57,080 nt of DNA from a virus (IMGVR_UViG_3300034104_001340:1-57080); one strand, 5' to 3'; shown: positions 7,407-46,828, numbered from the stretch's first letter. Notes: generated from the letters alone by a model not told the origin. Translations and numbers: made by a program.

Positions 7407-7664
7407 CTACTCCGTGCCGGTGGTGGCGTCAGGTTCTTCCCATGCCGGGTTGAGTTCCCAAGCAGTGTCTTTGTAAAAATACTTACCGCCTACCCAATCT
7501 TCTGGAGGAGTTACATTCTCATGGAGAACAGTGTCATTACCGCTACAGTCTCCGATAACAAACCACAGTGGCGCTCCAACTTCTATCGTGGTATCGCCCA
7601 GCACAATCGGCGTATTATCCGGCACTACATACAGGGAAATATCATCTCTAGTCAGCGTCTTCAT
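7407..7664 (-). CDS. Small fibre-associated protein
   Basis: 85 aa, ENVTPPEDWVGGKYFY...WELNPAW motif; follows the spike gene. Confidence 0.65.
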   Translation of the reverse strand: MKTLTRDDISLYVVPDNTPIVLGDTTIEVGAPLWFVIGDCSGNDTVLHENVTPPEDWVGGKYFYKDTAWELNPAWEEPDATTGTE

Positions 7665-18466: not shown

Positions 18467-18619
18467 TTATCGACCCTGACCTCTGTAGGCTTTGTGGGAG
18501 CGCTTTTGCGCCTTATTCATAGAGCTACGTTTAACGGCACCGTCACCGATGCTCGTCCCCTTCTTAGCCTTGTGGGCCAGCTGGTCGCTGAGGCTGTTCT
18601 GACTGAACTGTTTGACCAC
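18467..18619 (-). CDS. 50-aa basic protein
   Basis: GTG at 18619 with AAGGAG upstream; ends TSIG...MNK...KAYRGQGR; overlaps the end of the portal gene. Confidence 0.6.
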   Translation of the reverse strand: MVKQFSQNSLSDQLAHKAKKGTSIGDGAVKRSSMNKAQKRSHKAYRGQGR

Positions 18620-21035: not shown

Positions 21036-21037
21036 AA

Positions 21038-21247
21038 TTACTCCGTTGGGACCCACTTACCCAGTGGGCAGCCTGCACTTTTACGAAACACTTTTACCGG
21101 CATTATGCAGCCGCATTCTTTGCACTGACCAGTGAGCTGGATGAGCCTCGGACACTGCTTGCACACTTCCAAGCGTGCTTTAGCCATCTGTCTCACCTCT
21201 AGGGTTAAGCCCGGCACATGCTGCTGCAGCCACTCAACCGCGCTCAT
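21038..21247 (-). CDS. Small Cys-rich protein
   Basis: RLEVCKQC...QCKECGC...CPLGKW; between terminase and portal. Confidence 0.7.
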   Translation of the reverse strand: MSAVEWLQQHVPGLTLEVRQMAKARLEVCKQCPRLIQLTGQCKECGCIMPVKVFRKSAGCPLGKWVPTE

Positions 21248-22791
21248 CAGTAGTAACCTTCTCTCCGCCGTTTGTAGTAGCGCTGCTCTTCGGGCTCGTC
21301 ACTGGGCAACCGGAGGAACCCTCCCTGCCTGAACCGCAGCAACGCCATAATGCACGTATCCACATAGTCATCGTGCTCACCAGCCGGAAAGCTCGCCACC
21401 TCGTCGATGACCGCCTCCGCCCACGAGGTATTTGGTGCCCATACTATACCAGATGCAAATAGGTCTGATACTGCGTTGAGTCGGGCCATCTTGTTGTTGG
21501 GGTTGTTTGTCGTACCACGCACCGGTGTGTAGTCCTGTGCCGGTATACCCATGGCCCGCAGTTCGTAAATAAGGGGGGCACCGGAAGCTTTCTTCTCCAC
21601 GATGAGCGAGTCGGGCTTGTAGGCGTCGTACTGCTCTACTACCAGCCGCTTAAGTGTAGGGAACTCTGCTCGCTCCTTGATGGCGTTGAGCAGGATGAGG
21701 TTGGCTTGTTTCTCACCCTTGTCGTTGTTCTGGTAGAACACCCCCCACGTAGTACACGCCGAGAAGTCAGCCCGGTTGTTGGCCTCAAACGCCGTATCCC
21801 ATGCCTGCAGGATGTAGTCACAGTCCGGCGGGTCCTCTTCCTCCCACTGCTTCCACCACTCGCGCTTGATAATAGCGGAGGCATCCGAGGTGGGATTCTG
21901 CTGATACTGGGCCGTCCACTTGGCATTAGACAGGGTCTCCTTGAGCTTCTGCATGTCGTCGAGGGTCCAAAACTCGGGCCACAACGCGTTGCCAGAGGGC
22001 AAAATCGCCGGAAATTCAATGACTTCCCACGTATCCCCACCCCTCTGGGCCTCTGCTTTAAGCACTTGGGCTGTTAAGTCCCGCTGACTCCATCGGGTCA
22101 TGACCACGACTATGGCCCCGCCCGGCTGCAGACGCTGCCTTGGACCTGAGGTGTACCACTCATACACCTTATCGTAGACCTCTGGGTTAGTCTCAGCAGC
22201 CACAGCCTCCGCTTCCGAGTGCGGATCGTCGATTATCATGAGGTCGGCACCGCGACCGGTCATCGTACCGCCTACACCGATGGCAAAGTAGGTACCTTGC
22301 TTGTTGGTATCCCATCGCCCAGCAGCCTTGGAGTCTGCGGACAGCACCAACTCAGGGAAAATCTCCTTGTAAGCCTCGGAATCCACCAAGTTTCTTACTT
22401 TTCGACCGAACGTCTGTGCCAGCTCTGCCGTGTTGGACGACTGGATGACCTTTTTGTGCGGAAATTGCCCCAAAAACCACGCAGGCAGGATGTAGGAGGC
22501 AAATTCTGACTTGGTATGCCGGGGTGGCATGTTGATAATGAGGCGTTTCAGCTCTCCTCTGGCCACCCGCTCGAAGGCATTTGCCATGATGGCGTGGTGC
22601 CTACCGTGTATAAACGTAGGCCAGACGTGCTTGACGAAGGTGAGGAACCGATCTTTGCACTGCCCCTTGTGTTTCAAGGCTTCCAGCTTGGTCAACTGGG
22701 CTAGTAACAGCTCCTGCTCAGGCACGGAGAGTAACGAGAGGATGCTCGGGATGTCTTTTAGCGATATGTCGTTTAGTCGCTCAGACGTCAT
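21247..22791 (-). CDS. terL: Terminase large subunit
   Basis: Walker A-like MPPRHTKS, Walker B LMIIDD, MTRW, nuclease WDTA...HDDYVD; start moved to 22791. Confidence 0.95.
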   Translation of the reverse strand: MTSERLNDISLKDIPSILSLLSVPEQELLLAQLTKLEALKHKGQCKDRFLTFVKHVWPTFIHGRHHAIMANAFERVARGELKRLIINMPPRHTKSEFASYILPAWFLGQFPHKKVIQSSNTAELAQTFGRKVRNLVDSEAYKEIFPELVLSADSKAAGRWDTNKQGTYFAIGVGGTMTGRGADLMIIDDPHSEAEAVAAETNPEVYDKVYEWYTSGPRQRLQPGGAIVVVMTRWSQRDLTAQVLKAEAQRGGDTWEVIEFPAILPSGNALWPEFWTLDDMQKLKETLSNAKWTAQYQQNPTSDASAIIKREWWKQWEEEDPPDCDYILQAWDTAFEANNRADFSACTTWGVFYQNNDKGEKQANLILLNAIKERAEFPTLKRLVVEQYDAYKPDSLIVEKKASGAPLIYELRAMGIPAQDYTPVRGTTNNPNNKMARLNAVSDLFASGIVWAPNTSWAEAVIDEVASFPAGEHDDYVDTCIMALLRFRQGGFLRLPSDEPEEQRYYKRRREGYY

Positions 22792-23416
22792 CAACGTCGT
22801 CCTCTGACACCGCAGGGATGTCGAGTTCTTCCTTAAGCTGGTACAGGGACTCGTTGGGGTGCTCGAACACTCCAAGCTCCTCATCCAGCGCCGCCCCGTT
22901 AGGCACGGTCTCCACCACGCTGGCATTCATCAACCGCTTCACACGCTCTTTTATCTCATTTTCGAGATGAGCCGGGTCCTTATAGTTGATCGTAATCTCA
23001 CTACGGTCGGTAAACAGGCTGATGTCTTTGTGCTTACCGAGCAGCTCAAGCGCCTTAAGCTCGTACTTGGGGTCCCCGCAGTTGGCAAGCTCCATCAGCT
23101 TGTTGGTAATGGCAGCCCTAGCAGCGGCTACATCAAGGGCAAGTTGCGCACCGTACGTACGCAGGAAGGCCCCGGCAGCAAAGGCCGTGTTGGGCTGTGT
23201 AAGATTCTTGGTTTTGCCCTTCTCAACCACTTCTTTAAGCAGGGCTTGCTCGCGGGCAGTGTCTTCAGGACCAAGCGTAAGGGGTGCACCGAGTGCGTTC
23301 TGCAGCTCCGCCGTATTGGCAGCAAGAGTCATCTCGTCAAGCAGTGTGTCCACTGTTTCAGCAGAGAGGTCGTACGGGACCGGATGGTCCTTGGTGGGTG
23401 TGATGCTTACAGTCAT
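22781..23416 (-). CDS. terS: Terminase small subunit (putative)
   Basis: Directly upstream of terL; KALELLGK motif; start moved to ATG 23416. Confidence 0.7.
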   Translation of the reverse strand: MTVSITPTKDHPVPYDLSAETVDTLLDEMTLAANTAELQNALGAPLTLGPEDTAREQALLKEVVEKGKTKNLTQPNTAFAAGAFLRTYGAQLALDVAAARAAITNKLMELANCGDPKYELKALELLGKHKDISLFTDRSEITINYKDPAHLENEIKERVKRLMNASVVETVPNGAALDEELGVFEHPNESLYQLKEELDIPAVSEDDVDDV

Positions 23417-23446
23417 ATGCGCAAGTACTGGGTACTGATGGCGCGC

Positions 23447-23476
23447 AGTGTATATGGGGGGTGGGGGGCTTTGCAA
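23447..23476 (-). promoter_or_regulatory. Possible late-operon promoter
   Basis: TTGCAA-18 nt-TACACT upstream of terS. Confidence 0.4.
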
Positions 23477-23690
23477 GCGCGGGTCCCTTGACGGGGGGTG
23501 TTTGCTGAGTTGAGGGGGGTGGGGTCTGGTGGAAAAAAGTGAGTTAGTGGGGGGAGGGGGGTTGCGTTGTAGCTACAAGAGGCTTGGCTTTGTAAAGTTA
23601 ACTTGGGGGGTGGGGTGGTGTGAGTGGGATAGTATGATAGATGGCGGGGGGGCTTTTGTCTGGGCAAAGGGGGGTGGGGTATGGGTGGGG
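23456..23690 (+). repeat. G-tract array (G6-T/A-G4-6)
   Basis: GGGGGGTGGGG at 23456, 23514, 23605 and 23669; GGGGGGAGGGGGG at 23549; further G runs in between. Confidence 0.9.
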
Positions 23691-23752
23691 TAAGCGCCCC
23701 CCTAACATTGTTATGGCGGAATCTACCAAAGCGCATATTGAATTACGATATG

Positions 23753-23761
23753 TGCTATAGT
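23753..23761 (+). promoter_or_regulatory. Extended -10 promoter candidate for the first early gene
   Basis: TGcTATAGT about 50 nt before ATG 23812. Confidence 0.45.
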
Positions 23762-23811
23762 GGTTACGTCATCAAGTCGATGGCATCCAGCAACTAACTA
23801 AGGGTAAGCAC

Positions 23812-24387
23812 ATGAAAGCAGATAAGAAAGTAGTAGCAGCAGAACAGGCCGCCGTTGCACTTAGCACCATCCTTATGGCCACGCGTGAGGCGGCAATCAA
23901 TGAGGCGGCGAATCAGTATGGCGCGCTCCGCAAGTATGCAGCTGCATGCAACGAACTGTTCGGCATCCTGCCAACCTTTGATGGTAAGTATTGGTTTAAC
24001 GTGGACGGTAATGCTAAAGGTTCAGAGTTTACCGCCATTCATGCTGAATGGGCCTTGTTTCGCGAGGGACTGGTAAACAATAAGTGCAAGAATGTTAGCG
24101 TATACCGCAAGCGCCTCCGCGAACTTGCCTATGCTGAATCCGGCCTTGCACCTGAAACCACCACCGAAATTGAAGGCGCTGAGGGTGAAGGCGCTGAGGG
24201 TGAAGGCGCCGGAGACAAGGCCCGTCCCATCAAAGGCCGTATGCTTGAGGAGTTGGGCAAACTGTACAAAGCCCGCTTCAACGAAAAGTATGCTAGCGAG
24301 ATCACGGATGAAATCCGCGCCGCAACCAAGCACATTGAACAGGCGCTGCTGGCACTTGGCGCCAACCTGAATGATCTGGTGAAGTAA
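23812..24387 (+). CDS. First early protein, unknown function
   Basis: 191 aa, helical; acidic linker encoded by a 15-bp tandem repeat (24171-24209). Confidence 0.8.
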   Translation: MKADKKVVAAEQAAVALSTILMATREAAINEAANQYGALRKYAAACNELFGILPTFDGKYWFNVDGNAKGSEFTAIHAEWALFREGLVNNKCKNVSVYRKRLRELAYAESGLAPETTTEIEGAEGEGAEGEGAGDKARPIKGRMLEELGKLYKARFNEKYASEITDEIRAATKHIEQALLALGANLNDLVK

Positions 24388-24394
24388 CCACACC

Positions 24395-24420
24395 GGGGCC
24401 ACGGATGGCCCCTTTCCTTT
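24395..24420 (+). terminator. Hairpin/terminator with a CACGGATG apex
   Basis: GGGGCCA-CGGA-TGGCCCC followed by TTTCCTTT. Confidence 0.65.
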
Positions 24421-24455
24421 ACCCCTAACATTGTTACCCCATTGGAGTTATACCC

Positions 24456-24872
24456 ATGTTTACACTTAACCAACCTGTATACGATAGCAGCTATAACCTT
24501 GTTACAGTCGAAGGCGCTACCGTTGATCTTTCCACCGTTGCCGCATGGTTTGCCGACTATGGCATCGACCGTTTCATGGTTTGCTTTGATGGCCACTTGG
24601 CGCAGGTTGAAGTATCTACCCACCCCAGTGTGCAAACCTGCTTGCAAGTAACTGTGCGCCGGGATGATACCGGGGAACCGATTGTAAGCATCAAGTACTA
24701 CATGGAGCTTCCTGTATCTCAGGCGCGCATTGAGTCTGCGCAGCACATTGCGCAGCATGCCGCATACATTGGTAGGTACTTTGCCACGCCGCCCACCGCT
24801 GAGAACCTCGACTCCATCGCGTACCACGCCCGCAAGATTGCGCACCTGCTTGACCAAATGCCCGCCAAGTAA
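24456..24872 (+). CDS. Early hypothetical protein
   Basis: 138 aa; GGAG RBS; flanked by identical 20-bp repeats. Confidence 0.75.
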   Translation: MFTLNQPVYDSSYNLVTVEGATVDLSTVAAWFADYGIDRFMVCFDGHLAQVEVSTHPSVQTCLQVTVRRDDTGEPIVSIKYYMELPVSQARIESAQHIAQHAAYIGRYFATPPTAENLDSIAYHARKIAHLLDQMPAK

Positions 24873-24899
24873 CCCACCCCTAACATTGTTACCCCTTCC

Positions 24900-24926
24900 A
24901 GCCCGGCCATTGTGCCGGGCTTTTTT
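24900..24926 (+). terminator. Intrinsic terminator
   Basis: GCCCGGC-CATTGT-GCCGGGC-TTTTTT. Confidence 0.85.
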
Positions 24927-24993
24927 GTGCCTGCGATTTCCTTACGTTGTACTCGCCCTAACATTGTTAGGCCTTGCGCCATGCAGCCCGCGC

Positions 24994-25061
24994 GCAGAGA
25001 CCAGTGACTTCGCAGGTGAGTGGGTTTCGGTGCTGCATGGTGTGCAGAGACCAGTGACTTC
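24994..25061 (+). repeat. 18-bp direct repeat, two copies
   Basis: GCAGAGACCAGTGACTTC at 24994-25011 and 25044-25061. Confidence 0.9.
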
Positions 25062-25185
25062 ACCCGTGGTAGGACTGCGCAACGAGGCCTAACAATGTTA
25101 GGGCTTGACAATGACGACCCACACACCCCTTTTACATAGTGCAAATCAAGGACTTACGCGAAGTTTGCGAATCGTTCTCACCTAG

Positions 25186-25480
25186 GCGTAAGAAAGTTAG
25201 GAAGCTAAAAACGGGTTCTTACGCGCTAAGTTGTTGATTTGGCTGAGGAATTGGTAATGTTAGAATGTAAGACAAAAAAAAGGGTATGAAACCTTACGTG
25301 TCAAGTTGTGCAACTTAGCACTGTCAATATATACAGTGTAAAGTCTCGCAGGGGGGTTATATACTTTTATCTTAAAAAGATGACATTCTAACATTACACA
25401 TTTTTACATAAGTAAATCAACAACTTGCAACCGAAAACGACGTAAGAAAACGCGTAGATTTTGCCCTCTTTTTCTTACAC
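25186..25480. promoter_or_regulatory. AT-rich nested inverted repeat with IHF-type sites; candidate origin/control region
   Basis: Mirror pairs 25254-25268/25383-25397, 25228-25240/25414-25426, 25216-25223/25441-25448 and 25186-25195/25471-25480. Confidence 0.65.
25321..25336. promoter_or_regulatory. LexA (SOS) box-like site
   Basis: CTGT-caatatat-ACAG fits CTGT-N8-ACAG with an AT-rich spacer. Confidence 0.6.
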
Positions 25481-25625
25481 TATTACGCAAATTCTCTTAC
25501 GCGCACTCCTGCCTCCACCTCGAACCCTATTCCTTACGTTGTAGTCTGATATACTGATTCACTTCCTTACGTTGTACTACACCGTAAGCTTTTTCCGTAT
25601 TCTGCAAACCGACCTCACAGAACAC

Positions 25626-25654
25626 TTGATCCATTCAGCTTTTTAGAGTATAAT
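25626..25654 (+). promoter_or_regulatory. Sigma70-type early promoter
   Basis: TTGATC-17 nt-TATAAT. Confidence 0.75.
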
Positions 25655-25744
25655 ATACAAAATGGAGTTATATCTGTACAGAACGCGATCTACCCAGTGC
25701 CAACCCCCCTAACAATGTTAGGCCCAACAACGAGGAGCAACGAG

Positions 25745-25894
25745 ATGAGCAACGACAAGACACTAGCAGAGCAGCTGCTGTTCCAACTGCAATTCATGGG
25801 CATGATGCTGATGGTTGGCAGACAAGAGGAGGCCGACACGGCATACCAGAAAGCACTCACTCTTGCAAAAGAGCTTATCAAGGCGGGGCACTAA
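25745..25894 (+). CDS. Small early protein
   Basis: ATG 25745 after GAGGAG; 49 aa. Confidence 0.6.
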   Translation: MSNDKTLAEQLLFQLQFMGMMLMVGRQEEADTAYQKALTLAKELIKAGH

Positions 25895-25896
25895 CC

Positions 25897-26112
25897 ATGA
25901 ACGACAACAGCACAGCAGTGTGCAGCGACTGCGGCGACACCTACAGCAAGGAGCGCTGGAAGCTTGGGTACTACACCTGCCACCCATGCGGCGAGGAGCA
26001 TGCAGTCAACGTGCGAGCCGGGTGGTGCATAGCGCCGATGAACAAGAGCAACTACATCCTGATAACCGACAGAGCAGTGCTGGCACAACTCAACCCCAAG
26101 AGGACAACGTGA
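25897..26112 (+). CDS. Cys4 zinc-finger protein
   Basis: CSDC...R..LGY.TCHPC...PMNKSNY. Confidence 0.75.
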   Translation: MNDNSTAVCSDCGDTYSKERWKLGYYTCHPCGEEHAVNVRAGWCIAPMNKSNYILITDRAVLAQLNPKRTT

Positions 26113-26375
26113 TGAAAGTATATGTACTGCTCGAAAGTAAATACGGAGGCTCGCTGGAGTTAGCAGGTGTCTACGCCACCCGAGGTGCAGCCGGTGAGGC
26201 TGTGATTGACTCGGTACAGGAGATGCGAGGTTGCGAATACAACTGCGAGGTGCAAGAGCGCGAGGTAGTCGAAGAAAAAGACCGTTGTATAGAGTGCGCG
26301 GTTGAGTTGGTTGACGGCGGGGGTTGGGGGTACTGCCCCACATGCGCGCCTCCGTGGAGGAAGTGTGATGAGTAG
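26112..26375 (+). CDS. Hypothetical protein with C-terminal zinc ribbon
   Basis: Start moved to ATG 26112 (MKVYVLL...GVYAT); CIEC...CPTC. Confidence 0.65.
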   Translation: MKVYVLLESKYGGSLELAGVYATRGAAGEAVIDSVQEMRGCEYNCEVQEREVVEEKDRCIECAVELVDGGGWGYCPTCAPPWRKCDE

Positions 26376-26432
26376 AACAAAACAACGCGAGATTCGGTAA
26401 ACCGAAACTAACTAACCAAGAGGAGCAACAAC

Positions 26433-27296
26433 ATGGGCTTTGGAATAGACGGACGTGACCTACCACTACTGCGTAGCTATGCGCGGGCGAAAGTGCAGTA
26501 CGACAGCATCGTGCCGATCAGGGGTACTAACAATGTTAGGCCACTAGGTGACAGGCGCAAGCATCACCAGCGCATAGAGGTAGCCAAGCGCAACGGAGCA
26601 GGTGCAGCAGGGTTGGCGTGCGTGCTGTACAGCACGGCGTGTGTGACTTACTACGAGGACGGGACGCTACATCTTGCACACGGCGGCTACATATCGCAAA
26701 GCACCTGCACATTCATCAACCGTGTAGCACCTGTCTCAGGTGTGCGGATGGACAAGCAGCGAGACTGCCTCGTGGTGCGCATCAATGGCGGTGAGTACAA
26801 GTGCGGCAAGGATGGGCTGTGGCTTAAGTATGACGAGACAGCCACGGGTTACAAGCCAATAGACCCCGAGCCGTTCAAGGTCACACTTGTCAACCGCGTT
26901 GCTATGCGCGAGGTGAAGAAGCAGTACGCTGCCTTCATGCAGTATGCCGTAGGTCTGGGCAAGCTGACGCAGTGGGACAGGCCTGAGAAGGAGGGCCACC
27001 GTTGGATAGATGAGGGGGACTTGCTCAACTGTATGCGGGGTGAGGACATAGATCAGTGGGCGTGGGCATACCCGAGACTCTTGCTGTCAGCAGGCTCGTA
27101 CCGCCAGAGCTTCGACTACCAAGCGGGGTACTGGAGGCGCGGGGACTCCCTGTGGGTGTGTGACAAGAAGCGACTCGATGCCCAGCTGACCCACATGGTG
27201 AAGAAGGCATATGCAAGCGAAGTGCTCGTGCGTGAGACGCTACCACTAGGTGTGCATAAGAAAGATGCAAACTATAGGTACAACCGGGAGGTGTGA
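26433..27296 (+). CDS. Early hypothetical protein
   Basis: 287 aa; GAGGAG RBS. Confidence 0.8.
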   Translation: MGFGIDGRDLPLLRSYARAKVQYDSIVPIRGTNNVRPLGDRRKHHQRIEVAKRNGAGAAGLACVLYSTACVTYYEDGTLHLAHGGYISQSTCTFINRVAPVSGVRMDKQRDCLVVRINGGEYKCGKDGLWLKYDETATGYKPIDPEPFKVTLVNRVAMREVKKQYAAFMQYAVGLGKLTQWDRPEKEGHRWIDEGDLLNCMRGEDIDQWAWAYPRLLLSAGSYRQSFDYQAGYWRRGDSLWVCDKKRLDAQLTHMVKKAYASEVLVRETLPLGVHKKDANYRYNREV

Positions 27297-27297
27297 G

Positions 27298-27426
27298 ATG
27301 AGCAACTGGAAACTGATAGCCCTAACATTGTTAGTCAGTATGGCGTTAGCGGCGGGCATTGCATGTGCAGTGTTCGTACTGTTCGCATTGGGTGACAGCA
27401 TCTTTGCTGTAGGGAAGGGGATGTAA
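27298..27426 (+). CDS. 42-aa hydrophobic membrane peptide
   Basis: MSNWKLIALTLLVSMALAAGIACAVFVLFALGDSIFAVGKGM; GGAGG RBS; below the ORF-track cutoff. Confidence 0.55.
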   Translation: MSNWKLIALTLLVSMALAAGIACAVFVLFALGDSIFAVGKGM

Positions 27427-27500
27427 CGGGGAGTTAAGTAGTAAAAGCAGTACCTAAACCAATGTAGGGTTTCCTACATTCAACCAACGAGGATACAAGC

Positions 27501-28577
27501 ATGACCGCACAATCAATCGCAACTGAGCGTTACACCGTAACTCTGGCACAGGCAGCGAGCCTTATCCTTGCTTGCCCGGGCAACAGATACTTCCTGCGTG
27601 GCGAGCCGGGCATCGGCAAGTCGAGCATCATCAAGGAGCTTCAAGCCAAGACAGGATATCGCGCAGCATACATCGACTGCCCCAACATGGACTTGGGTGA
27701 CATAGCAATGCCGGTGATCGACCATGAGAGTAGGACAACCAAGTACTACCCCAACGGGCGCTTTCAGCTGCAACACGGCGAGCCAGTCATCATCATGCTG
27801 GACGAGTTCACCAAGGCCGCTGACCCGGTGAAGAACATGCTGCACCCACTACTCGAAGTGCATAACCCGCGCTTGGGTGATGTGAGTCTGCCCGCAGGTA
27901 GCATCGTGTTCCTGACTGGTAACTTAGACAGTGACGGCGTGGGTGACTCCTTGCTTGCACATAGCAAGATGCGCGTAACCGAGGTAGAGGTCGGTAAGCC
28001 TGACTCCGACCAATGGTTGCAGTGGGCCTCGGGCGCTGGCATCGACCCGGCTGTGATGGCGTGGGTGTACCGCAACCCCCATGCGCTTGCTTCATACCGT
28101 GACGGTGACCAAGACGGCAACCCCTACATCTTCCATCCGAACAAGGTGCAAGGTGCTGTAGTCACGCCGCGTACGCTGGAGCTTGGGTCTAACATTGTTA
28201 GGGCACGTGAGAACTTCGATGCGGGGGCATTGCAGGCTGCGCTTGTGGGTACGATCGGTGCCGCAGCTGCGGGTAGCTTGGCTGCCTTCATTGCACATCA
28301 GGACTCACTGCCGCCGTACGAGCAGATCATCAAGCATCCTGATACGACCAAGGTGCCCGAGGAGCCGGGTGCGCTTAGCGTTCTTGTCTTTGGTGCCATC
28401 GAGAGGATCAAGCATAGAGACGAGGTCACGGCGCTGCTCAAGTACTTCGGGCGTGCAGATGTCGAGTGGCAGACTATCTTCAACGTGACGCTGGTGCGCA
28501 ACAAGACCAAGGCTAGCTTCGGATACAACTGCAAGGCGTTTGCTGATTGGGTCACCAAGAATCAGGACTTGCTGTAA
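27501..28577 (+). CDS. MoxR-like AAA+ ATPase
   Basis: Walker A GEPGIGKS, Walker B IIMLDE, sensor TGN, TPRT. Confidence 0.88.
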   Translation: MTAQSIATERYTVTLAQAASLILACPGNRYFLRGEPGIGKSSIIKELQAKTGYRAAYIDCPNMDLGDIAMPVIDHESRTTKYYPNGRFQLQHGEPVIIMLDEFTKAADPVKNMLHPLLEVHNPRLGDVSLPAGSIVFLTGNLDSDGVGDSLLAHSKMRVTEVEVGKPDSDQWLQWASGAGIDPAVMAWVYRNPHALASYRDGDQDGNPYIFHPNKVQGAVVTPRTLELGSNIVRARENFDAGALQAALVGTIGAAAAGSLAAFIAHQDSLPPYEQIIKHPDTTKVPEEPGALSVLVFGAIERIKHRDEVTALLKYFGRADVEWQTIFNVTLVRNKTKASFGYNCKAFADWVTKNQDLL

Positions 28578-28599
28578 CCACAACTACGAGGAACAAAAC

Positions 28600-29874
28600 A
28601 TGAACGCAGCGGTTGAGCTGGACAAAGTAGAACGCAAGTACAAGCGGGTGCGCATCTCCATCATGCGTGATGCAACCTTCATGGCGGTAGGGCCGGTGAT
28701 GCGGCTCGGCAAGCAGTACATCGTGGATGACTTCCCGACAGCGTGTACTGACGGTGTGAACGAGAGATACGGGCGTGCCTTCGTGCGCGCATTGGAGGAG
28801 AAGCCCCTCGGGTTTGTGATATTGCATGAGACTTACCACAAGCTGTGCAGGCACATCAGTATCTATCGCAAGCTGTGGGAGGAGGATGCATGGCGAGCCA
28901 ACATGGCGACTGACTATTGGATCAACCTGAAGCTGGACAAGCTGAGCAAGACCTGCAACCTGCTCGAGATGCCACGCTACACCGAGGCACTGCTGGCACT
29001 GCTCACACCCAAGCAGCGGGCTGCGCTTGATGCAGAAGGTAAGGGGCTGGGGGATTACTTCGGCTTACTTGACTACAAGTATGACGGCATGACTGTGGTT
29101 GAGATATTTAGGGCACTGAAAGAAGAACAGAAGGAGCGCGGGGAGGGTGGTGAAGGCGAAGGCCCGAGCGGCTTCGATGACCACGACTGGGAAGGTGGTG
29201 ACTCCATACCCAAGGAGGAGCAGGAGAAGATGCGCGAGGAAGTTGAGCGTGCTATCCGTGAGGGCCAGATGCTTGCCAAGAAGTACGGCGCAGACTCGGC
29301 AGGTGCAGAGTTGGGCTTCGATGATCTGCTTAAGCCCAAGGTGGACTGGCGTGCGCAGCTGCGTGACTTCGTGCGTAGCACATGCCGCAAGATGGAGCAG
29401 AGCACATGGCGTAGGCCCAACAGGCGCTTCCTGCACCAAGGCATCATCATGCCCACCATGCAAGGCAAGCAGATCAAGTCGCTCGGTGTATGCGTGGATG
29501 CGTCAGGCTCGATGTTCTGTGGTAGCCCTACGCCGTTCAAGCGTGTGATGAGCGAGATTGATGGGCTGACCAAGCAGTTGGGTATCGACACGCTGCACTT
29601 GATCTACTGGGATGGTGCTGTGTGCGCACATGAGACGTACACGCCGACATCGGTAGGTGGCTGGCTCAAGGCAACGCAGCCGCGTGGGGGTGGGGGTACT
29701 GACCCCGCGTGTATCTCCCCGTGGCTTAAGGAGAAGGGCATCAAGCTGGATGCAGCTGTGGTGCTGACTGATGGCGAGGTGCCGGGTTGGGGGCAGTGGA
29801 CGGTGCCGGTGCTGTGGCTCATTACGGGCAAGGCAACGGCGAGTGTGGGTAAGACTATTCGTGTGGAGGACTGA
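28600..29874 (+). CDS. DUF2201-like HExxH metallopeptidase plus vWA domain protein
   Basis: PTACTDG, LHETYH, MIDAS DASGSM, GGGGTD, VLTDGE; start moved to 28600. Confidence 0.85.
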   Translation: MNAAVELDKVERKYKRVRISIMRDATFMAVGPVMRLGKQYIVDDFPTACTDGVNERYGRAFVRALEEKPLGFVILHETYHKLCRHISIYRKLWEEDAWRANMATDYWINLKLDKLSKTCNLLEMPRYTEALLALLTPKQRAALDAEGKGLGDYFGLLDYKYDGMTVVEIFRALKEEQKERGEGGEGEGPSGFDDHDWEGGDSIPKEEQEKMREEVERAIREGQMLAKKYGADSAGAELGFDDLLKPKVDWRAQLRDFVRSTCRKMEQSTWRRPNRRFLHQGIIMPTMQGKQIKSLGVCVDASGSMFCGSPTPFKRVMSEIDGLTKQLGIDTLHLIYWDGAVCAHETYTPTSVGGWLKATQPRGGGGTDPACISPWLKEKGIKLDAAVVLTDGEVPGWGQWTVPVLWLITGKATASVGKTIRVED

Positions 29875-29876
29875 GT

Positions 29877-30128
29877 ATGAAAGTGAAGATGAACATAGGT
29901 GGGCGTAGCTTGGTGGTGCCAATGGAGACCGCCGAGGAGATCATGGAGCTTGCGTTCCGTTACGGAGAGGAGTGTGAGCAGAAGTGGAACCGCGCTGTGG
30001 ATGGCGTAGAGGCTTACTACTCCACGCATGTGTACGAGATCAACCCATCGGAGTTCAAGTTCTCGCTGGACGTTATTACAGAAGGGCAGTATCAGATGTA
30101 CAAGTTGGCAGGCAAACCTAAAAACTAA
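29877..30128 (+). CDS. Hypothetical protein
   Basis: 83 aa; GGAGG RBS. Confidence 0.7.
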   Translation: MKVKMNIGGRSLVVPMETAEEIMELAFRYGEECEQKWNRAVDGVEAYYSTHVYEINPSEFKFSLDVITEGQYQMYKLAGKPKN

Positions 30129-30142
30129 ACGAGGATACACGT

Positions 30143-30490
30143 ATGAAAGACGGTCGCAAAAACAAGACGTTCAAAACTGTATGCAGTCAGAACATGAAGT
30201 CCCTGTGGAGCACTATGGCACCAGAGGAGCGAGCTGTACGGCTGGAGAAGATGCGCATAGCAAGAGACGTTGCACGCGCAGCGAGGAAAGCTGCGAAGCA
30301 AGAGGTCGCAGTTGTTCAAGTAGAGCAGCTGGCGTTGCCGTTGGTGCAGCAGGAGTACACGCCATCCACTCACGCGATGGAGGAAGCAATGGCAGCACTA
30401 GACATCCTTGTACAGGTAACGAGTACCGTGCTTGGGGTGACACTGAACCAACAACAGGCCGCTGAGTTCTGGGCCAACAGACTGAAGTAA
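30143..30490 (+). CDS. Hypothetical protein with basic N-terminus
   Basis: 115 aa; conserved leader AACTAAACGAGGATACAC. Confidence 0.7.
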   Translation: MKDGRKNKTFKTVCSQNMKSLWSTMAPEERAVRLEKMRIARDVARAARKAAKQEVAVVQVEQLALPLVQQEYTPSTHAMEEAMAALDILVQVTSTVLGVTLNQQQAAEFWANRLK

Positions 30491-30500
30491 GGAGAAGCAC

Positions 30501-30890
30501 ATGGGGTACAGAAGTAGCATCAAAGCGGCGTTCTACCCGCAGAAAAACGAGGACTTTGCGCTTATCAAACTGTGGGTGGACGAGCACATCATGAGGACGC
30601 AAGACTTTTGGCCCTACCGCATAGCGAAGCGGAGTGGGTCTAGGTTCATCTTGTTCGAGATTGATGACGTTAAGTGGTACGACAACTTCCCAGAGGTGAT
30701 TGCTTTCAACAATGCGTTAGTCGAGTTCGAGGATATGTTCGGAAATGGAAAAGACACTGACGCACCTAGGGCTTTTATGGAGTTTATCCGACTTGGTGAA
30801 GACCCTACTGATGTAGAAGAACGCAGCTCGGATAGCTTTGAAGTGCTGCAGCTGGTGCGGCACATGAACGTAGACGAAGACGTAGAGTAA
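30501..30890 (+). CDS. Conserved phage hypothetical protein
   Basis: MGYRS...VKWY...FIRLGEDPTD. Confidence 0.75.
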   Translation: MGYRSSIKAAFYPQKNEDFALIKLWVDEHIMRTQDFWPYRIAKRSGSRFILFEIDDVKWYDNFPEVIAFNNALVEFEDMFGNGKDTDAPRAFMEFIRLGEDPTDVEERSSDSFEVLQLVRHMNVDEDVE

Positions 30891-30915
30891 CAACCAACTA
30901 AACGAGGATACACAT

Positions 30916-31767
30916 ATGAGCATTGCAGCAAGCGCAGTACTGGTAAAGCTGTCCATTAGCACGTGGACGGCCAACAAGATCGACCGGGTGCAGACTGACC
31001 GTGTACTGGCAGACAACAACGCCAGCAACAGGGCAGCGCAGGTACGCAAGAACCTCATGGCAGGTACGCAGAAGATCAAAGGCCTAGTGGACTTTGCGCA
31101 GCACTGTCGAAATGAGAATTACAGGCTCACGTTGCCATGGGAGGACAGGGGCAACCGCCTGCTGCCAACCAGCTTGTTCCTCGACTACAAGGCCAAGATG
31201 AATGGGTACAAGAACCAGTTCATCCAGATGCGTGGCGACATCGCGTACAACTACGATGCCTTGCAGCAGACGGCGCGCAACTACCTCGGGGATATGTACG
31301 ATGCAGCAGACTACCCCGGTGTGGACGAGGTGATTAGTAAGTACGATTGGCAGCTGACGTTCAGCCCGGTGCCCGATGCAGGCCACTTCTACCTCGACAT
31401 CCCGGCCAGCGAGCTGGAGGAGGTGAAGCAGTCACTCAACGTGGAGAACGACCTGCGACTTAAGGACGCAACGCGCACGGCGTGGGACAGACTGCACACA
31501 CTGTTGGAAGGCATGACGGGCAAGCTGGCTGAGACTGACGAGGGCAAGACCAAACGCTGGCACGATAGCTTTGTGACCAACGCATCGGAGTTGTGCTCCA
31601 TGCTTACGCACCTCAACGTAACCCGAGACCCGGAGCTTGAGCGTGCAAGACGTATGCTTGAGGCTTCCATTGCTGGCGTGCAAGTTGATACACTCAAGGT
31701 ATCGCCTGTCGCAAGAGAGAACCTCAAGGGCAAGGTGGACGACATCATCAAACAGTTCGAGTGGTGA
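30916..31767 (+). CDS. DUF3150-like helical protein
   Basis: LVKLSISTW...TLPW...RLLP...YP...LNVTRDPEL; lies near the MoxR/vWA pair. Confidence 0.7.
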   Translation: MSIAASAVLVKLSISTWTANKIDRVQTDRVLADNNASNRAAQVRKNLMAGTQKIKGLVDFAQHCRNENYRLTLPWEDRGNRLLPTSLFLDYKAKMNGYKNQFIQMRGDIAYNYDALQQTARNYLGDMYDAADYPGVDEVISKYDWQLTFSPVPDAGHFYLDIPASELEEVKQSLNVENDLRLKDATRTAWDRLHTLLEGMTGKLAETDEGKTKRWHDSFVTNASELCSMLTHLNVTRDPELERARRMLEASIAGVQVDTLKVSPVARENLKGKVDDIIKQFEW

Positions 31768-31771
31768 GTAC

Positions 31772-32230
31772 ATGATGGAGTATGAGTTCGTAATACAAGA
31801 CATAGACACTGTGATGGGGGGCTTGAAAGCAACGCTCCCTGACGACTTCCACCGCGCTATGGACATGCGCGTGGTGCAGATGGCTGAGCACTTCTACACC
31901 GTAGCTGAGCTACTGGAGTTACCCGACAAGGATGTCGAGGCGCTGGCTGAGCAACTAAGTATCGCACTACTCAACAAGCAGGTGAAGGATGCGTGGTACT
32001 CAGGCAAAGGCAAGGTGTTCATCCGTGGGCCTGAGCTGTGGAGTGTGTATATACCAAGAGCACCCACTAGCAGGCAGGCTATATACAAGCCAGACGAGGT
32101 GCCGACTGAGTGGCGCAGGCAGTTGGGTATGCTACAGCTATTGGAAGGGCGGCGTACTCTGCTGAAGGACTGTGGCTACCGACATGACGACAAGGTGTTT
32201 TACTTACTGGAGGCAGAAGATGGAGCTTAA
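31772..32230 (+). CDS. Hypothetical protein
   Basis: Start moved to ATG 31772, just after the upstream stop. Confidence 0.65.
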   Translation: MMEYEFVIQDIDTVMGGLKATLPDDFHRAMDMRVVQMAEHFYTVAELLELPDKDVEALAEQLSIALLNKQVKDAWYSGKGKVFIRGPELWSVYIPRAPTSRQAIYKPDEVPTEWRRQLGMLQLLEGRRTLLKDCGYRHDDKVFYLLEAEDGA

Positions 32231-32468
32231 GAACAGTGCAGGGTACTCAGTTAATGTGGGTTCGCTGGTCAGAGATACGGCGGGCGTGGAGTATCGAGTT
32301 GAGGATATAACCGCTACGCAGGTGCACGTAGTGACAACTAATCCCCCGCGCAGACAGCGCAGGTGCAAGCCAGCTGAGTTGGGGTTGGTAGTGGCGTCAC
32401 ACACCGCAGACAGGACTAAGTTTGACTTAGCGCGGCAGAAGCTGCGCAGTTATTGGGAGAGCGAATAA
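32220..32468 (+). CDS. Small beta-rich hypothetical protein
   Basis: ATG 32220 after GGAGG. Confidence 0.6.
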   Translation: MELKNSAGYSVNVGSLVRDTAGVEYRVEDITATQVHVVTTNPPRRQRRCKPAELGLVVASHTADRTKFDLARQKLRSYWESE

Positions 32469-32469
32469 C

Positions 32470-32664
32470 ATGGCGCGAGGTAAGCAGAAGGAGCCAACGT
32501 GGGTGCATATCAACATCCGCGTTCCACAAGGGGTGTACGAGTACTTCTCGCAGTCTCCGAATATGTCCGAGGCTATACGTGAAGTACTAAGCGCATACGT
32601 TAATACCCCTAACAATGTTAGGGGGCCCACACAACAGGAGGCAGAAGATGGCGACGACACCTGA
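32470..32664 (+). CDS. Ribbon-helix-helix (Arc/CopG-like) DNA-binding protein
   Basis: Strand VHINIRVP followed by two helices (NMSEAIREVLSAYV). Confidence 0.65.
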   Translation: MARGKQKEPTWVHINIRVPQGVYEYFSQSPNMSEAIREVLSAYVNTPNNVRGPTQQEAEDGDDT

Positions 32665-32944
32665 AGGCAAAGTAAAAGCCAAGGTGGTCAAGCTACTCAA
32701 GGAGCGGGGGGTGTACTACTTCTTCCCCGCTACCTTTGGGATGGGGCGATCCGGTGTGCCCGATGTAGTGTGCTGCCGAGGAGGGTGGTTCCTTGCTGTT
32801 GAGTGCAAGGCTGGTAAGAACAAACCCACGGCGTTGCAGGAGAGGGAGATAGAGGCGATACGCGCAGCAGGTGGCACGGCGCTTGTTATCAACGAGGACA
32901 ACTTACATGAACTGGAGGCACACTTAGATGAACCAAGGTATTGA
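32648..32944 (+). CDS. VRR-NUC nuclease (Holliday junction resolvase-like)
   Basis: TPEGKVK...GVPD...AVECKA...PTALQ; start moved to 32648. Confidence 0.85.
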   Translation: MATTPEGKVKAKVVKLLKERGVYYFFPATFGMGRSGVPDVVCCRGGWFLAVECKAGKNKPTALQEREIEAIRAAGGTALVINEDNLHELEAHLDEPRY

Positions 32945-33170
32945 GATATTGCTGGCCCGCATGGACAGCCACCCGCAGGAGTTTGACAGCGAGGCTATGA
33001 CCGGACGCTATGGGCGCTGGACGCATACCGTAGACCTAGTGCTTGCCATAGGTGGTAGCTTCACTGACGAGGAGAGGAACGCGCTTAATAAAAAACTACG
33101 TGAGTTGGAGCGTGAGCGGTTCACACGGCGGGTGATGAAGAAGCTGTTGGACGAGCCGGAGGGTAAATGA
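32928..33170 (+). CDS. Hypothetical protein
   Basis: 80 aa; GGAGG RBS. Confidence 0.7.
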   Translation: MNQGIEILLARMDSHPQEFDSEAMTGRYGRWTHTVDLVLAIGGSFTDEERNALNKKLRELERERFTRRVMKKLLDEPEGK

Positions 33171-34993
33171 ACATACTGACCATCGACTTCGAGACCTACT
33201 ACGACAAGCAGTTCAGTCTCTCCAAGCTAACAACCGAGGAGTACCTCCGTGACACGCAGTTCGAGGTGATCGGTGTGTCGGTGCAGCTCAATGACGGTGA
33301 GCCTGAGTGGTTCTCCGGCACTATGGAAGATACGAGCGAGTGGCTGCGCAAGTTCGACTGGGCCAGCAGTATAGCTATAGCGCACAACGCTATGTTCGAC
33401 CTAGCCATACTTAACTGGCACTTCGACCTGCGACCCAAGCGCATTGTGGACACGCTGTCTATGGCAAGGGCTATTCACACGATAGAAGTAGGCGGGAGCC
33501 TCGCTGCGTTGGTGGAGCATTACAAGCTTGGGAAGAAGGGCACCGAGGTAATCAACGCGCTGGGTAAGCGGCGACTGGGCTTCACACCCGAAGAGCTTGA
33601 TGCCTATGGTGAGTACTGCAAGAACGACACAGCCCTGACCTATAAGCTGTTCTGCAAGTTGATGGAGCCGGGCTTCTCGGTTGATGAGCTGCGCTTGATT
33701 GACGTGACGGTGCGCATGTTCTCGGAGCCGGTGTTGCAGATAGATACACCACTGTTGGAAGCCCATTTGATCGGGGTCAAGGAGAAGAAGGAGAAGCTGC
33801 TGAGTAAGGCGCTGGTGGACAAGGACGACCTGATGAGCAACCCGAAATTTGCGGCACTGCTGACTCTGCTTAGCGTAGTACCACCAATGAAGACCAGCCT
33901 GACCACGGGCAAGGAGACCTACGCCTTCTCCAAGCAGGACGAGGAGTTCATGGTGTTACTGGAGCATCCAGATGTGCTGGTGCAGTCGCTGGTATCGGCT
34001 CGGCTGGGGCTGAAGTCTACGTTGGAAGAGACACGCACTGAGCGGTTCATCAACATTGCAAAGCGTGGGTCGCTCCCTATCCCGTTGAAGTACTACGCAG
34101 CGCACACCGGACGCTGGGGAGGCGATGACTCGGTGAACATGCAGAACTTGCCGCGTGGTGGGACGCTGAAGAACGCACTGATGGCACCGCCCGGGTATGT
34201 ACTGGTTGACTCTGACTCCTCGCAGATTGAGGCGCGCACGCTGGCGTGGTGGGCTGGACAAGACGATCTCGTTGCCGCATTCGAGCGTGGTGACGATGTG
34301 TATAAGATCATGGCGTCTGCTATCTACGGCAAGGTGGAGGCAGACATATCCAAGGATGAACGGTTCGTAGGTAAGACCACTATCTTGGGCGCGGGGTATG
34401 GGATGGGGCACAAGAAGTTCCATACGCAACTGAAAAACTTCGGCGTTGATTTTCCCCTTGCTGAGTGCAAGCGCATCATCAGTGTGTACCGTAGTACCTA
34501 CGAAGCTATACCGGAGCTGTGGGAGCAGGCGCAGTCAGTGTTGTATGCGATGCTCGAAGATAAATCTGCACCGCTCGGTAAAAAAGGGGTAGTTTTTGTT
34601 GAGGGTAAGCGCGGAATTCGCTTGCCTAACGGGCTTTACATCAAGTACCCTAACCTTCGGCGCGTCAAGAACGATGAGGGTAGGTCTGAGTTTGTATACG
34701 ACACCAAGAGGGGTCGAGCGGTCATACCAAACAGGATATACGGCGGTAAAGTTGTAGAGAACGTAGTGCAGGCGCTGGCTCGTATTGCTGTAGGTGAGCA
34801 GCTGCTGCGCATTGCCAAGAAGTACAAAGTTGTGATGACGGTACATGACGCAGTTTGTGCGTTGGTGCCTGAAGTAGAGAAGGAGCGCGGCCTTGAGTAC
34901 GTTGAGCTGTGCATGAAGATACGCCCCCAATGGGCACCAGATTTACCACTGAATTGCGAGGCTGGCGCTGACCCGCGTTACGGGCAGTGTTAG
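33167..34993 (+). CDS. polA: Family A DNA polymerase with 3'-5' exonuclease
   Basis: Exonuclease DFET and HNAMFD; HTGRW, NMQN; motif A DSSQIEAR, motif B RFVGKTTILGAGYG, motif C VHDA. Confidence 0.95.
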   Translation: MNILTIDFETYYDKQFSLSKLTTEEYLRDTQFEVIGVSVQLNDGEPEWFSGTMEDTSEWLRKFDWASSIAIAHNAMFDLAILNWHFDLRPKRIVDTLSMARAIHTIEVGGSLAALVEHYKLGKKGTEVINALGKRRLGFTPEELDAYGEYCKNDTALTYKLFCKLMEPGFSVDELRLIDVTVRMFSEPVLQIDTPLLEAHLIGVKEKKEKLLSKALVDKDDLMSNPKFAALLTLLSVVPPMKTSLTTGKETYAFSKQDEEFMVLLEHPDVLVQSLVSARLGLKSTLEETRTERFINIAKRGSLPIPLKYYAAHTGRWGGDDSVNMQNLPRGGTLKNALMAPPGYVLVDSDSSQIEARTLAWWAGQDDLVAAFERGDDVYKIMASAIYGKVEADISKDERFVGKTTILGAGYGMGHKKFHTQLKNFGVDFPLAECKRIISVYRSTYEAIPELWEQAQSVLYAMLEDKSAPLGKKGVVFVEGKRGIRLPNGLYIKYPNLRRVKNDEGRSEFVYDTKRGRAVIPNRIYGGKVVENVVQALARIAVGEQLLRIAKKYKVVMTVHDAVCALVPEVEKERGLEYVELCMKIRPQWAPDLPLNCEAGADPRYGQC

Positions 34994-46653: not shown

Positions 46654-46828
46654 TTACAACATCAACTGGACGGAGTTTAAGGTGGGGGCGTCGTTCTTTG
46701 TCCCCTGCCTTCACCCACCCTCTGCTTGGCAAGAGATGCTCCCCACCCTCAGACGCTTGCGTTACAAAACTGTACACAAGGTAGTCATTGAGGGCGGGGT
46801 GCGAGGCATCCGGGTGTGGCGGGTTTAG
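46634..46828 (+). CDS. Small DNA-binding-like protein
   Basis: FKVGASFFVP...GIRVWR. Confidence 0.65.
   Translation: MLVERVSYNINWTEFKVGASFFVPCLHPPSAWQEMLPTLRRLRYKTVHKVVIEGGVRGIRVWRV

Follow-up and report, generated by a model that had tools for sequence, protein, structure and literature searches.

Among described systems, the stoperators of cluster A mycobacteriophages are the closest to the array of sites treated here. Each genome of those phages contains more than 20 copies of a single short motif, found at promoters and in small gaps between genes; the orientation of the copies is correlated with transcription, and a role in halting both initiation and elongation has been proposed (PMC9283540). 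They are described there as asymmetric 13-mers that are spread genome-wide in temperate phages and are read by a monomeric helix-turn-helix (HTH) repressor (PMC9283540). We analyzed a stretch of viral DNA of 57,080 b, IMGVR_UViG_3300034104_001340:1-57080 (hereafter the window), which makes up a whole IMG/VR virus record (completeness 91%, classed as linear) and carries ten copies of a 15-bp palindrome. Compared with these stoperators, the arrays of this phage and its relatives are similar in having 10-20 copies, in placing many of them in gene junctions and in showing an orientation bias in those relatives whose sites have asymmetric centres; the window sites cannot show an orientation because their centre is a single nucleotide. 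They differ in that the sites are 13-15-bp palindromes with mirror-symmetric degeneracy and are limited to the early region, and in that neither an integrase nor a repressor was detected by PHROGs in 52 open reading frames (ORFs) or by Pfam in 47, and the candidate reader has no detectable HTH.

Multi-operator repressors are also known from other temperate phages, such as repressor c of Streptomyces phage phiC31 (conserved inverted repeats) and C1 of P1 (dispersed operators). There too, a single inverted repeat recurs many times in the early region, and some copies stand away from promoters, but these systems maintain lysogeny. In the phage of the window the two ORF scans found no lysogeny genes and no members of the integrase, repressor, ParA/ParB or RNA polymerase families. 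A search for open papers on the phiC31 inverted repeats (supplementary files were outside its scope) found none that was relevant. An earlier interpretation made from the DNA alone (the sequence-only reading) had proposed an undescribed kind of system, which goes too far, as phages with operator arrays of many copies have been described. The present array stands apart from the known ones in that it is palindromic and early-only, occurs in a phage with no lysogeny genes detected, has an orphan candidate reader and shows wholesale turnover of motif dialects.

By DNA polymerase, the nearest phages are Rhizobium phage RHph_TM3_14A (37.2% identity) and Pseudomonas phage KPP25 (36.8%), and a megablast of 22000-34000 found no nucleotide similarity between the window and GenBank phages. 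RHph_TM3_14A (MN988472.1) is syntenic with the window (ATPase, metallopeptidase-like protein, DNA polymerase, helicase, primase and giant virion protein) and has an array of its own, with 34 copies of TTACC-N5-6-GGTAA and none of the control pattern. Unlike the array of the window, it has other arms, a variable centre of 5-6 nt and a spread over the whole 60.9-kb genome. We have seen no report of it, though no search was aimed at that array itself. In KPP25 no comparable array was found, and literature searches on KPP25/phiR18 promoters and Rhizobium phage repeats (again with supplementary files outside the scope) yielded nothing bearing on the array. In RHph_TM3_14A several right arms run into Shine-Dalgarno (SD)-like AGG/GAGG; its record labels a primase-like gene 'putative integrase' and places an attL within the ATPase gene.

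The ten sites in the window are real. A search with CTAACAWTGTTA returned 17 strand-matches, which make up ten sites between 23701 and 32622, and 0 in each of 100 shuffles. With up to two mismatches, the 15-mer CCTAACAWTGTTAGG found the same ten (0.07 expected) and the 13-mer found only these ten in the record (0.71 expected), so that there are no weaker copies in the other ~48 kb; because the window is the entire virus record, this holds for the record as a whole. The sequence-only reading thus proved correct on ten copies, on four perfect ones (24957, 25088, 25708 and 32608), on none elsewhere, on four copies inside ORFs, encoding TNNVR, LTLL, SNIVR and PNNVR, and on a density that is highest at the left and drops rightwards. 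Its coordinates were right save for one-base offsets, as it had mixed the starts of the 15-mer with those of the core (23702, 24425, 24880, 24958, 25089, 25709, 26527, 27322, 28189 and 32609). All centres are 1 nt long, six being T and four A. The first 2 kb hold six sites, distributed about the first two plus-strand ORFs and a non-coding stretch of 0.8 kb; beyond them three sites are spaced by ~800-870 bp, and the tenth follows after a 4.4-kb gap, before the Hjc-like and polymerase genes. The sites are as follows.

23701..23715, site 1: CCTAACATTGTTATG, 1 mismatch; divergent intergenic region, ~97 nt upstream of the start of gene 23812
24424..24438, site 2: CCTAACATTGTTACC, 2 mismatches; 18 nt before ATG 24456; no RNA fold
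24879..24893, site 3: CCTAACATTGTTACC; 7 nt past the stop of ORF 24456-24872, right before a terminator-like hairpin; no RNA fold
24957..24971, site 4: perfect 15-mer
25088..25102, site 5: perfect 15-mer
25708..25722, site 6: perfect 15-mer; in the inferred 5' leader, 22 nt before ATG 25745
26526..26540, site 7: inside ORF 26433-27296 (TNNVR)
27321..27335, site 8: inside the 42-codon ORF 27298-27426 (LTLL), upstream of the ATPase gene
28188..28202, site 9: inside the ATPase gene 27501-28577 (SNIVR codons); the position is also occupied in same-motif relatives
32608..32622, site 10, last of the array: perfect 15-mer; last codons of the ribbon-helix-helix (RHH) ORF 32470-32664 (PNNVR)

Sites 4 and 5 together make a perfect inverted pair of 20 nt whose arms are 110 nt apart, and site 10 comes 26 nt ahead of ATG 32648, the SD-preceded start of the Hjc-like gene.

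The array is also conserved. With the ATPase as query, we took from IMG/VR the best 80 of 263 relatives (54-58% identity) and from metagenome contigs 80 of 408, of which 67 were new to the set. Most of the 124 non-redundant related loci carry 10-20 copies of the palindrome. In five complete type-A genomes (60-63.5 kb), all 17, 17, 15, 17 and 11 copies fall within 12.6, 8.9, 9.2, 10.6 and 9.7 kb, respectively, and in three type-B genomes (two complete, one 83% complete) all 8, 11 and 15 copies fall within 11-12 kb. Confinement to the early region, which the sequence-only reading had claimed for the window, therefore holds in the window and also in the eight relatives searched genome-wide, each with all its copies in one stretch of 9-13 kb. 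We call this region early from its gene content and layout. A logo of 444 non-redundant sites has its information solely in (C)CTAACAWTGTTAG(G), with no asymmetric flank. Classed by the commonest 5-nt arm, the 124 loci use the following dialects.

TAACA or CTAAC arms, 88 of 124 loci: types A and B and, in a few loci, CTAAC arms around an unconstrained 3-nt centre
Type A, that of the window: CTAACA-W-TGTTAG, 1-nt centre
Type B: CTAACA-WW-TGTTAG, 2-nt centre
Type C, 3 of 124 loci: CTGACA-AA-TGTCAG
ATAAC arms, 3 of 124 loci
CTTAAC-N3-GTTAAG, 2 of 124 loci
GTTAC/GTAAC arms, 1 of 124 loci
Unrelated palindrome CGTGGGAATTCCCACG, 1 of 124 loci
No array, 26 of 124 loci, many of these loci being short

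Between dialects both arms always change together, and the sites are rewritten in concert between lineages. The unrelated palindrome lies 64 nt before and 7 nt after the ATPase gene of its locus (L248), and types B and C occupy the same junctions. The motif is not that of matS, as had been said from the sequence: the window arms are TAAC/GTTA and do not match the matS consensus, and TGAC/GTCA arms occur in some relatives only, with a 4-nt centre. As to copy numbers in the rarer dialects, L248 has six copies of CGTGGGAATTCCCACG, L230 has three of GTAGGCTTAAGCCTAC beside ATAACA-type sites, L250 has eight of CTTAAC-N3-GTTAAG and L235 has four of GTTAC..GTAAC. Some type-B phages carry 1-nt-centre sites around gene 1 and 2-nt-centre sites downstream.

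The copy in the ATPase gene shows that selection acts on the nucleic acid and not on the peptide alone. Every one of the 80 ATPase homologues has the peptide ASNIVR at the place of window site 28188. The codons for it read TCT AAC ATT GTT AG-, which gives the motif, in 43 of 44 type-A loci, and the sole exception spells that phage's own variant. The motif is spelled at this place in seven of 26 type-B, none of four type-C and one of six array-poor loci, the rest using different synonymous codons. The 30 distinct type-A versions vary in just one of the motif columns, against 2-4 bases at the adjacent third positions. The proposal that selection acts on the DNA rather than the protein is thus supported by synonymous codons that are fixed at ASNIVR, and this imprint neatly illustrates how a regulatory motif can be embedded in the codons of a conserved peptide.

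We suggest that the array is a set of operators and roadblocks, stoperator-like, which would control early transcription, and we give this explanation a probability of roughly one half. The ten palindromes would be recognition sites of a sequence-specific, two-fold symmetric (dimeric) regulator that is encoded by the phage and acts on double-stranded DNA. The reader would be the product of gene 23812-24387, which would be expressed from its own small promoter-to-terminator unit, and the bracketing of this gene by sites suggests autoregulation. Further sites would lie ~47 nt past the main promoter and then along the early operon, in junctions or in permissive codons. The bound protein would serve both as operator-bound repressor and as a roadblock to elongation, throttling or shutting off transcription of the early region by the host RNA polymerase, and the shut-off would rise as the protein accumulates. 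That repression is the effect of the bound protein we infer.

The layout around the sites agrees with this proposal. Three predicted signals are concerned.

24395..24412, plus strand: terminator-like hairpin after gene 23812; site 2 comes 12 nt later
24900..24921, plus strand: strong terminator-like hairpin with a T run, after ORF 24456-24872; it closes the first small transcription unit
25626..25654, plus strand: sigma-70-like promoter, TTGATC-17-TATAAT, 10 of 12 matching positions

The sites flank and separate gene 23812, its hairpin, ORF 24456-24872 and the second hairpin. The promoter at 25626-25654 is likely the main early promoter; it precedes the site at 25708, which begins ~47 nt downstream of the inferred transcription start, and the ORF that opens the long plus-strand block comes next. 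This order of promoter, site (at about +47 to +62) and first operon gene is shared by the window and two relatives, L009 (promoter 7133-7161, site 7230) and L031 (promoter 7596-7624, 11 of 12; site 7683). Pairs of sites 112-132 bp apart flank the start of gene 1 in many relatives.

Other repeats were seen near the sites. The divergent intergenic region left of site 1 (23455-23690) holds G-rich repeats TGGGGGGTGGGG, with three copies of a 19-mer and a 37-nt pair, and there is a minus-strand sigma-70-like match at 23662-23634. The AT-rich, non-coding 0.8-kb hub at 24930-25700 has three copies of TTCCTTACGTTGTACT and is rich in CTTACG/CGTAAG words; it also contains a direct repeat of 25 nt (24994 and 25044) and a number of long-range inverted repeats. 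This hub might serve as an origin or as the site cluster of a second regulator. At the matching place, L076 and L079 have a tandem array of TGCCTATTTTTTA iterons.

The candidate reader is encoded by the gene below.

23812..24387, plus strand: first early gene, 191 aa, orphan helical family, bracketed by sites

That its product reads the sites is a claim drawn from gene content, and we rate its chance as somewhat under even. ORFs between the small-terminase homologue and the ATPase gene were clustered in 46 loci and the window. The 23812 family was present in 44 of 44 array-bearing genomes (25 type A, 17 type B and 2 type C) and in none of three array-poor ones, and in an independent metagenome set it was present in nine of nine array-bearing loci that cover the position, again against none of three. 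When all plus-strand ORF clusters within 10 kb on either side were compared, this family alone was common among array-rich loci and missing from array-poor ones while also being carried by the window. Among the readers that the sequence-only reading had named, this first early protein therefore gained support, as the sole family carried by the window that tracks the presence of the array. Sites stand on both sides of the gene in the window, L009, L230 and L248, the member in L230 being bracketed by its own ATAACA variant, and a very divergent member (E 4e-5) accompanies the unrelated palindrome of L248. No member was detected in the 36 kb of RHph_TM3_14A that were examined.

The family has 215 members at E<=0.001. 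The best 120 of them are annotated only as 'hypothetical protein', have no Pfam domain and come, all but one, from metagenome collections; a query with the single 23812 protein found no relative in viral contigs. In the model of the protein (predicted local distance difference test 81) an acidic disordered linker joins a four-helix N-domain to a three-helix C-domain, and the most conserved stretch of the family is a turn followed by W-x-R-[VI]-[RK]. Leads from the ESM Atlas (DUF3102 0.81, Phage_Repressor_c 0.80) are at chance level, and the Phage_Repressor_c Pfam family matched none of the aligned members. The protein, which has no fold or family match, may nonetheless contain a cryptic HTH. 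Within the gene, 24171-24200 is a perfect tandem 15-nt repeat that encodes acidic EGAEG linker repeats, and some relatives (L270, L272, L285 and L304) carry two paralogues ~1-1.5 kb apart.

Other proteins were considered as readers. The sequence-only reading had favoured the RHH protein of ORF 32470-32664, which was so called by eye and has no Pfam match. This choice is disfavoured, as the family occurs in 56 array-rich and also in three array-poor loci, with strand residues that look alike in both groups, and its gene is not directly upstream of the Hjc-like gene in most loci examined. A family of ~79 aa (39 array-rich loci against none) was rejected as a universal reader because no window ORF resembles its members by eye. 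The zinc-ribbon protein 25897-26112, a 71-aa protein with four cysteines that by eye recalls TraR/DksA-type zinc fingers and has no Pfam match, is present in 47 of 47 genomes, with or without an array. Of the other readers that the sequence-only reading had named, an ejected virion protein may also be considered, as may a host protein, to which we return below.

Several observations weigh against the explanation that we favour. Where the centre has 2 nt, AA outnumbers TT by 252 to 62, whereas the flanks have an AA/TT ratio of 1.48, and the centre length varies within one genome, in the Rhizobium phage between 5 and 6 nt; a rigid symmetric dimer on DNA predicts neither an orientation bias nor a variable length of the centre. 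L250, with its array of the CTTAAC dialect, has no detectable member of the 23812 family. On the ATPase tree (62 rows) the family state changes four times and the array state three times, with two independent pairs on supported branches, and because independent changes are so few the association of family and array is suggestive rather than significant. Searches with the protein itself turned up no DNA-binding family or fold: Pfam and PHROGs found nothing, Pfam on 28 family members found nothing below its cut-offs, a profile search of the PDB found nothing below E 0.2, and Foldseek against the PDB found nothing at E<=0.001. The best VIA-align score was Z 6.3, to a KaiA-like helical bundle, which is within chance for helical proteins. 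The family is, in addition, mildly acidic overall (isoelectric point about 5.3-8.5).

More tentatively, the array and its reader may form a self-contained, fast-evolving 'dialect' system, the counterpart of stoperators in a lytic phage. An orphan, all-helical early protein with a new DNA- or RNA-binding fold would then be paired with 10-20 palindromes placed in junctions and even in codons of the early region, and protein and sites would be rewritten in concert from lineage to lineage, in the extreme to wholly unrelated palindromes at the same junctions. It might work as a timer that silences the early region or as a mark by which the phage labels its own early DNA. We consider this possible, though doubtful in its full form.

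Another alternative, which we regard as unlikely, is that the sites are hairpins in early transcripts or in single-stranded DNA, read by a phage RNA-binding protein that might be the 23812 product, with a role in antitermination, in transcript processing or stability, or in translational control. Sense-strand centres are A-rich well beyond local composition, also in stretches without a long ORF (107 AA against 30 TT), and this, like the variable centre length mentioned above, would suit a hairpin; for seven of the ten window sites a fold of -5.1 to -12.6 kcal/mol is predicted. In relatives the sites farthest to the left, ahead of gene 1, are reversed, as expected if orientation follows local transcription. 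The first operon site is in the 5' leader, and sites adjoin the terminator-like hairpins. Type-B and type-C sites are nearly all in gene junctions, 1-38 nt upstream of start codons and in part overlapping the SD, and 13% of sites, compared with 3% of random positions, lie 10-20 nt before an SD and start. This placement could, however, be explained by the coding properties of the type-B motif, which has stop codons in two of three sense frames and is thereby pushed into junctions. When the motif is in frame, AAT (Asn) is favoured over TTT (Phe) by 42 to 2; part of the evidence for strand specificity follows from coding constraint.

The tolerated variants are mirror-symmetric. Among 196 one-mismatch sites, most changes fall on the outermost pair: C>A accounts for 57 in the left arm and its mirror, G>T, for 53 in the right arm. 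These changes are neither compensatory nor wobble-type in the main, as wobble-type changes number 4 on the sense (plus) strand and 21 on the minus strand. The window sites at 24424 and 24879 do not fold (0 kcal/mol) and one more reaches only -2.1 kcal/mol. Because the changes are mirrored without base pairing being kept, and because two sites cannot fold, recognition of double-stranded DNA by a dimer is favoured. Both the 444-site logo and the comparison of dialects show invariant arms and a variable centre, the opposite of the pattern at known hairpin readers. Over half of the type-A sites are inside long ORFs, and in L031 the first site is upstream of the gene-1 promoter and would therefore not be transcribed from it. 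We consider duplex DNA read by a symmetric dimer more probable than an RNA hairpin.

It is less likely still that a host protein, such as a nucleoid-associated or extragenic-palindrome binder, reads the sites and is exploited by the phage on its early DNA. The clue is one metagenome-assembled genome titled Dinoroseobacter sp. (G006, 3.8 Mb); among the matches listed, the perfect 15-mer otherwise gave scattered single hits in reference genomes. G006 has 21 CTAACAWTGTTAG sites against none for the reversed control pattern, and those inspected are all intergenic, mostly at gene 3' ends, with four pairs 81-113 bp apart, a spacing to be set beside the 110 nt between the arms of the window pair. In this the sites recall the repetitive extragenic palindromic (REP/REPIN) elements of bacteria, as an identical 13-mer is repeated between genes, partly in pairs ~80-110 bp apart; unlike those, the phage has four of ten copies in ORFs, and its ATPase-gene copy is kept by codon choice. 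The closest cultured relatives infect Rhizobium, an alphaproteobacterium, and the motif is identical in phages with just ~55% ATPase identity. The G006 sites may thus point to a host factor, or they may be due to chance, given the small space of 6-7-nt arms and 185,579 species. None of 300 other genomes of the family of G006 is enriched, one of them having one site; G006 has no 23812-family homologue, and the motif does not border the one Y1-transposase gene that it has. In the window, the Pfam scan found no Y1 transposase (Y1_Tnp). Since closely related phages use different dialects or none, a phage-borne reader fits better than a host one. Some of the G006 pairs (loci L211-L225) have extended GC-rich palindromic flanks and neighbouring GTTAAC-like words.

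The remaining genes of the window were mapped with the same PHROGs and Pfam scans and fall into three blocks.

Up to ~23.7 kb, minus strand: structural and packaging block, with the large terminase 21247-22926 and the portal 18564-21056
23.8-46.7 kb, plus strand: block with the AAA ATPase 27501-28577, a DUF2201_N protein and the Hjc-like nuclease 32648-32944
23.8-46.7 kb, plus strand, further genes: DNA polymerase 33167-34993, exonuclease, helicase and primase
Right-hand block, minus strand: includes the 2041-aa virion protein 46825-52950

The last of these proteins has an LPD39 domain, its sole Pfam match, and DarB-like PHROG matches. In addition, its residues 765-1057 give a partial match to the PHROG 'virion RNA polymerase' (E 1.7e-16), which, together with sites that are early-only and hairpin-shaped, raises the possibility that, as in phage N4, a virion-borne RNA polymerase uses the palindromes as hairpin promoters. 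We find this highly improbable, as the protein matches no solved chain at E<=1 in a bank that includes the N4 polymerase structures, no asymmetric, -10-like or start element stands at a fixed distance from the 444 aligned sites, and sigma-70-like promoters are present; the unfoldable sites and start-codon distances as short as 1-4 nt in relatives argue against it as well. The parS/matS- or stoperator-like array of the sequence-only reading survives best in its stoperator half, for although clustered palindromes, some of them in genes, and a perfect site within the RHH ORF would suit a centromere or condensation array or an RHH reader, either is very improbable given the distribution and neighbourhood of the RHH family described above and the lack of any ParB, ParA or MatP-like domain among the scanned ORFs, and the parS/matS analogy is only one of shape because no ParB-like or partition gene was found.

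If the favoured explanation is true, a small orphan protein and a 15-bp site would make up a testable pair, with natural variants in specificity, that controls early expression in a large and environmentally common group of phages. This group has no cultured member closer than ~37% DNA polymerase identity and, if the more tentative dialect-system proposal applies, would perhaps consist of abundant uncultured aquatic podophages. Regulation by many-site roadblocks would then extend beyond the temperate actinophages. The protein would represent a new nucleic-acid-binding family, and the dialects would provide a natural series of orthogonal protein-site pairs.

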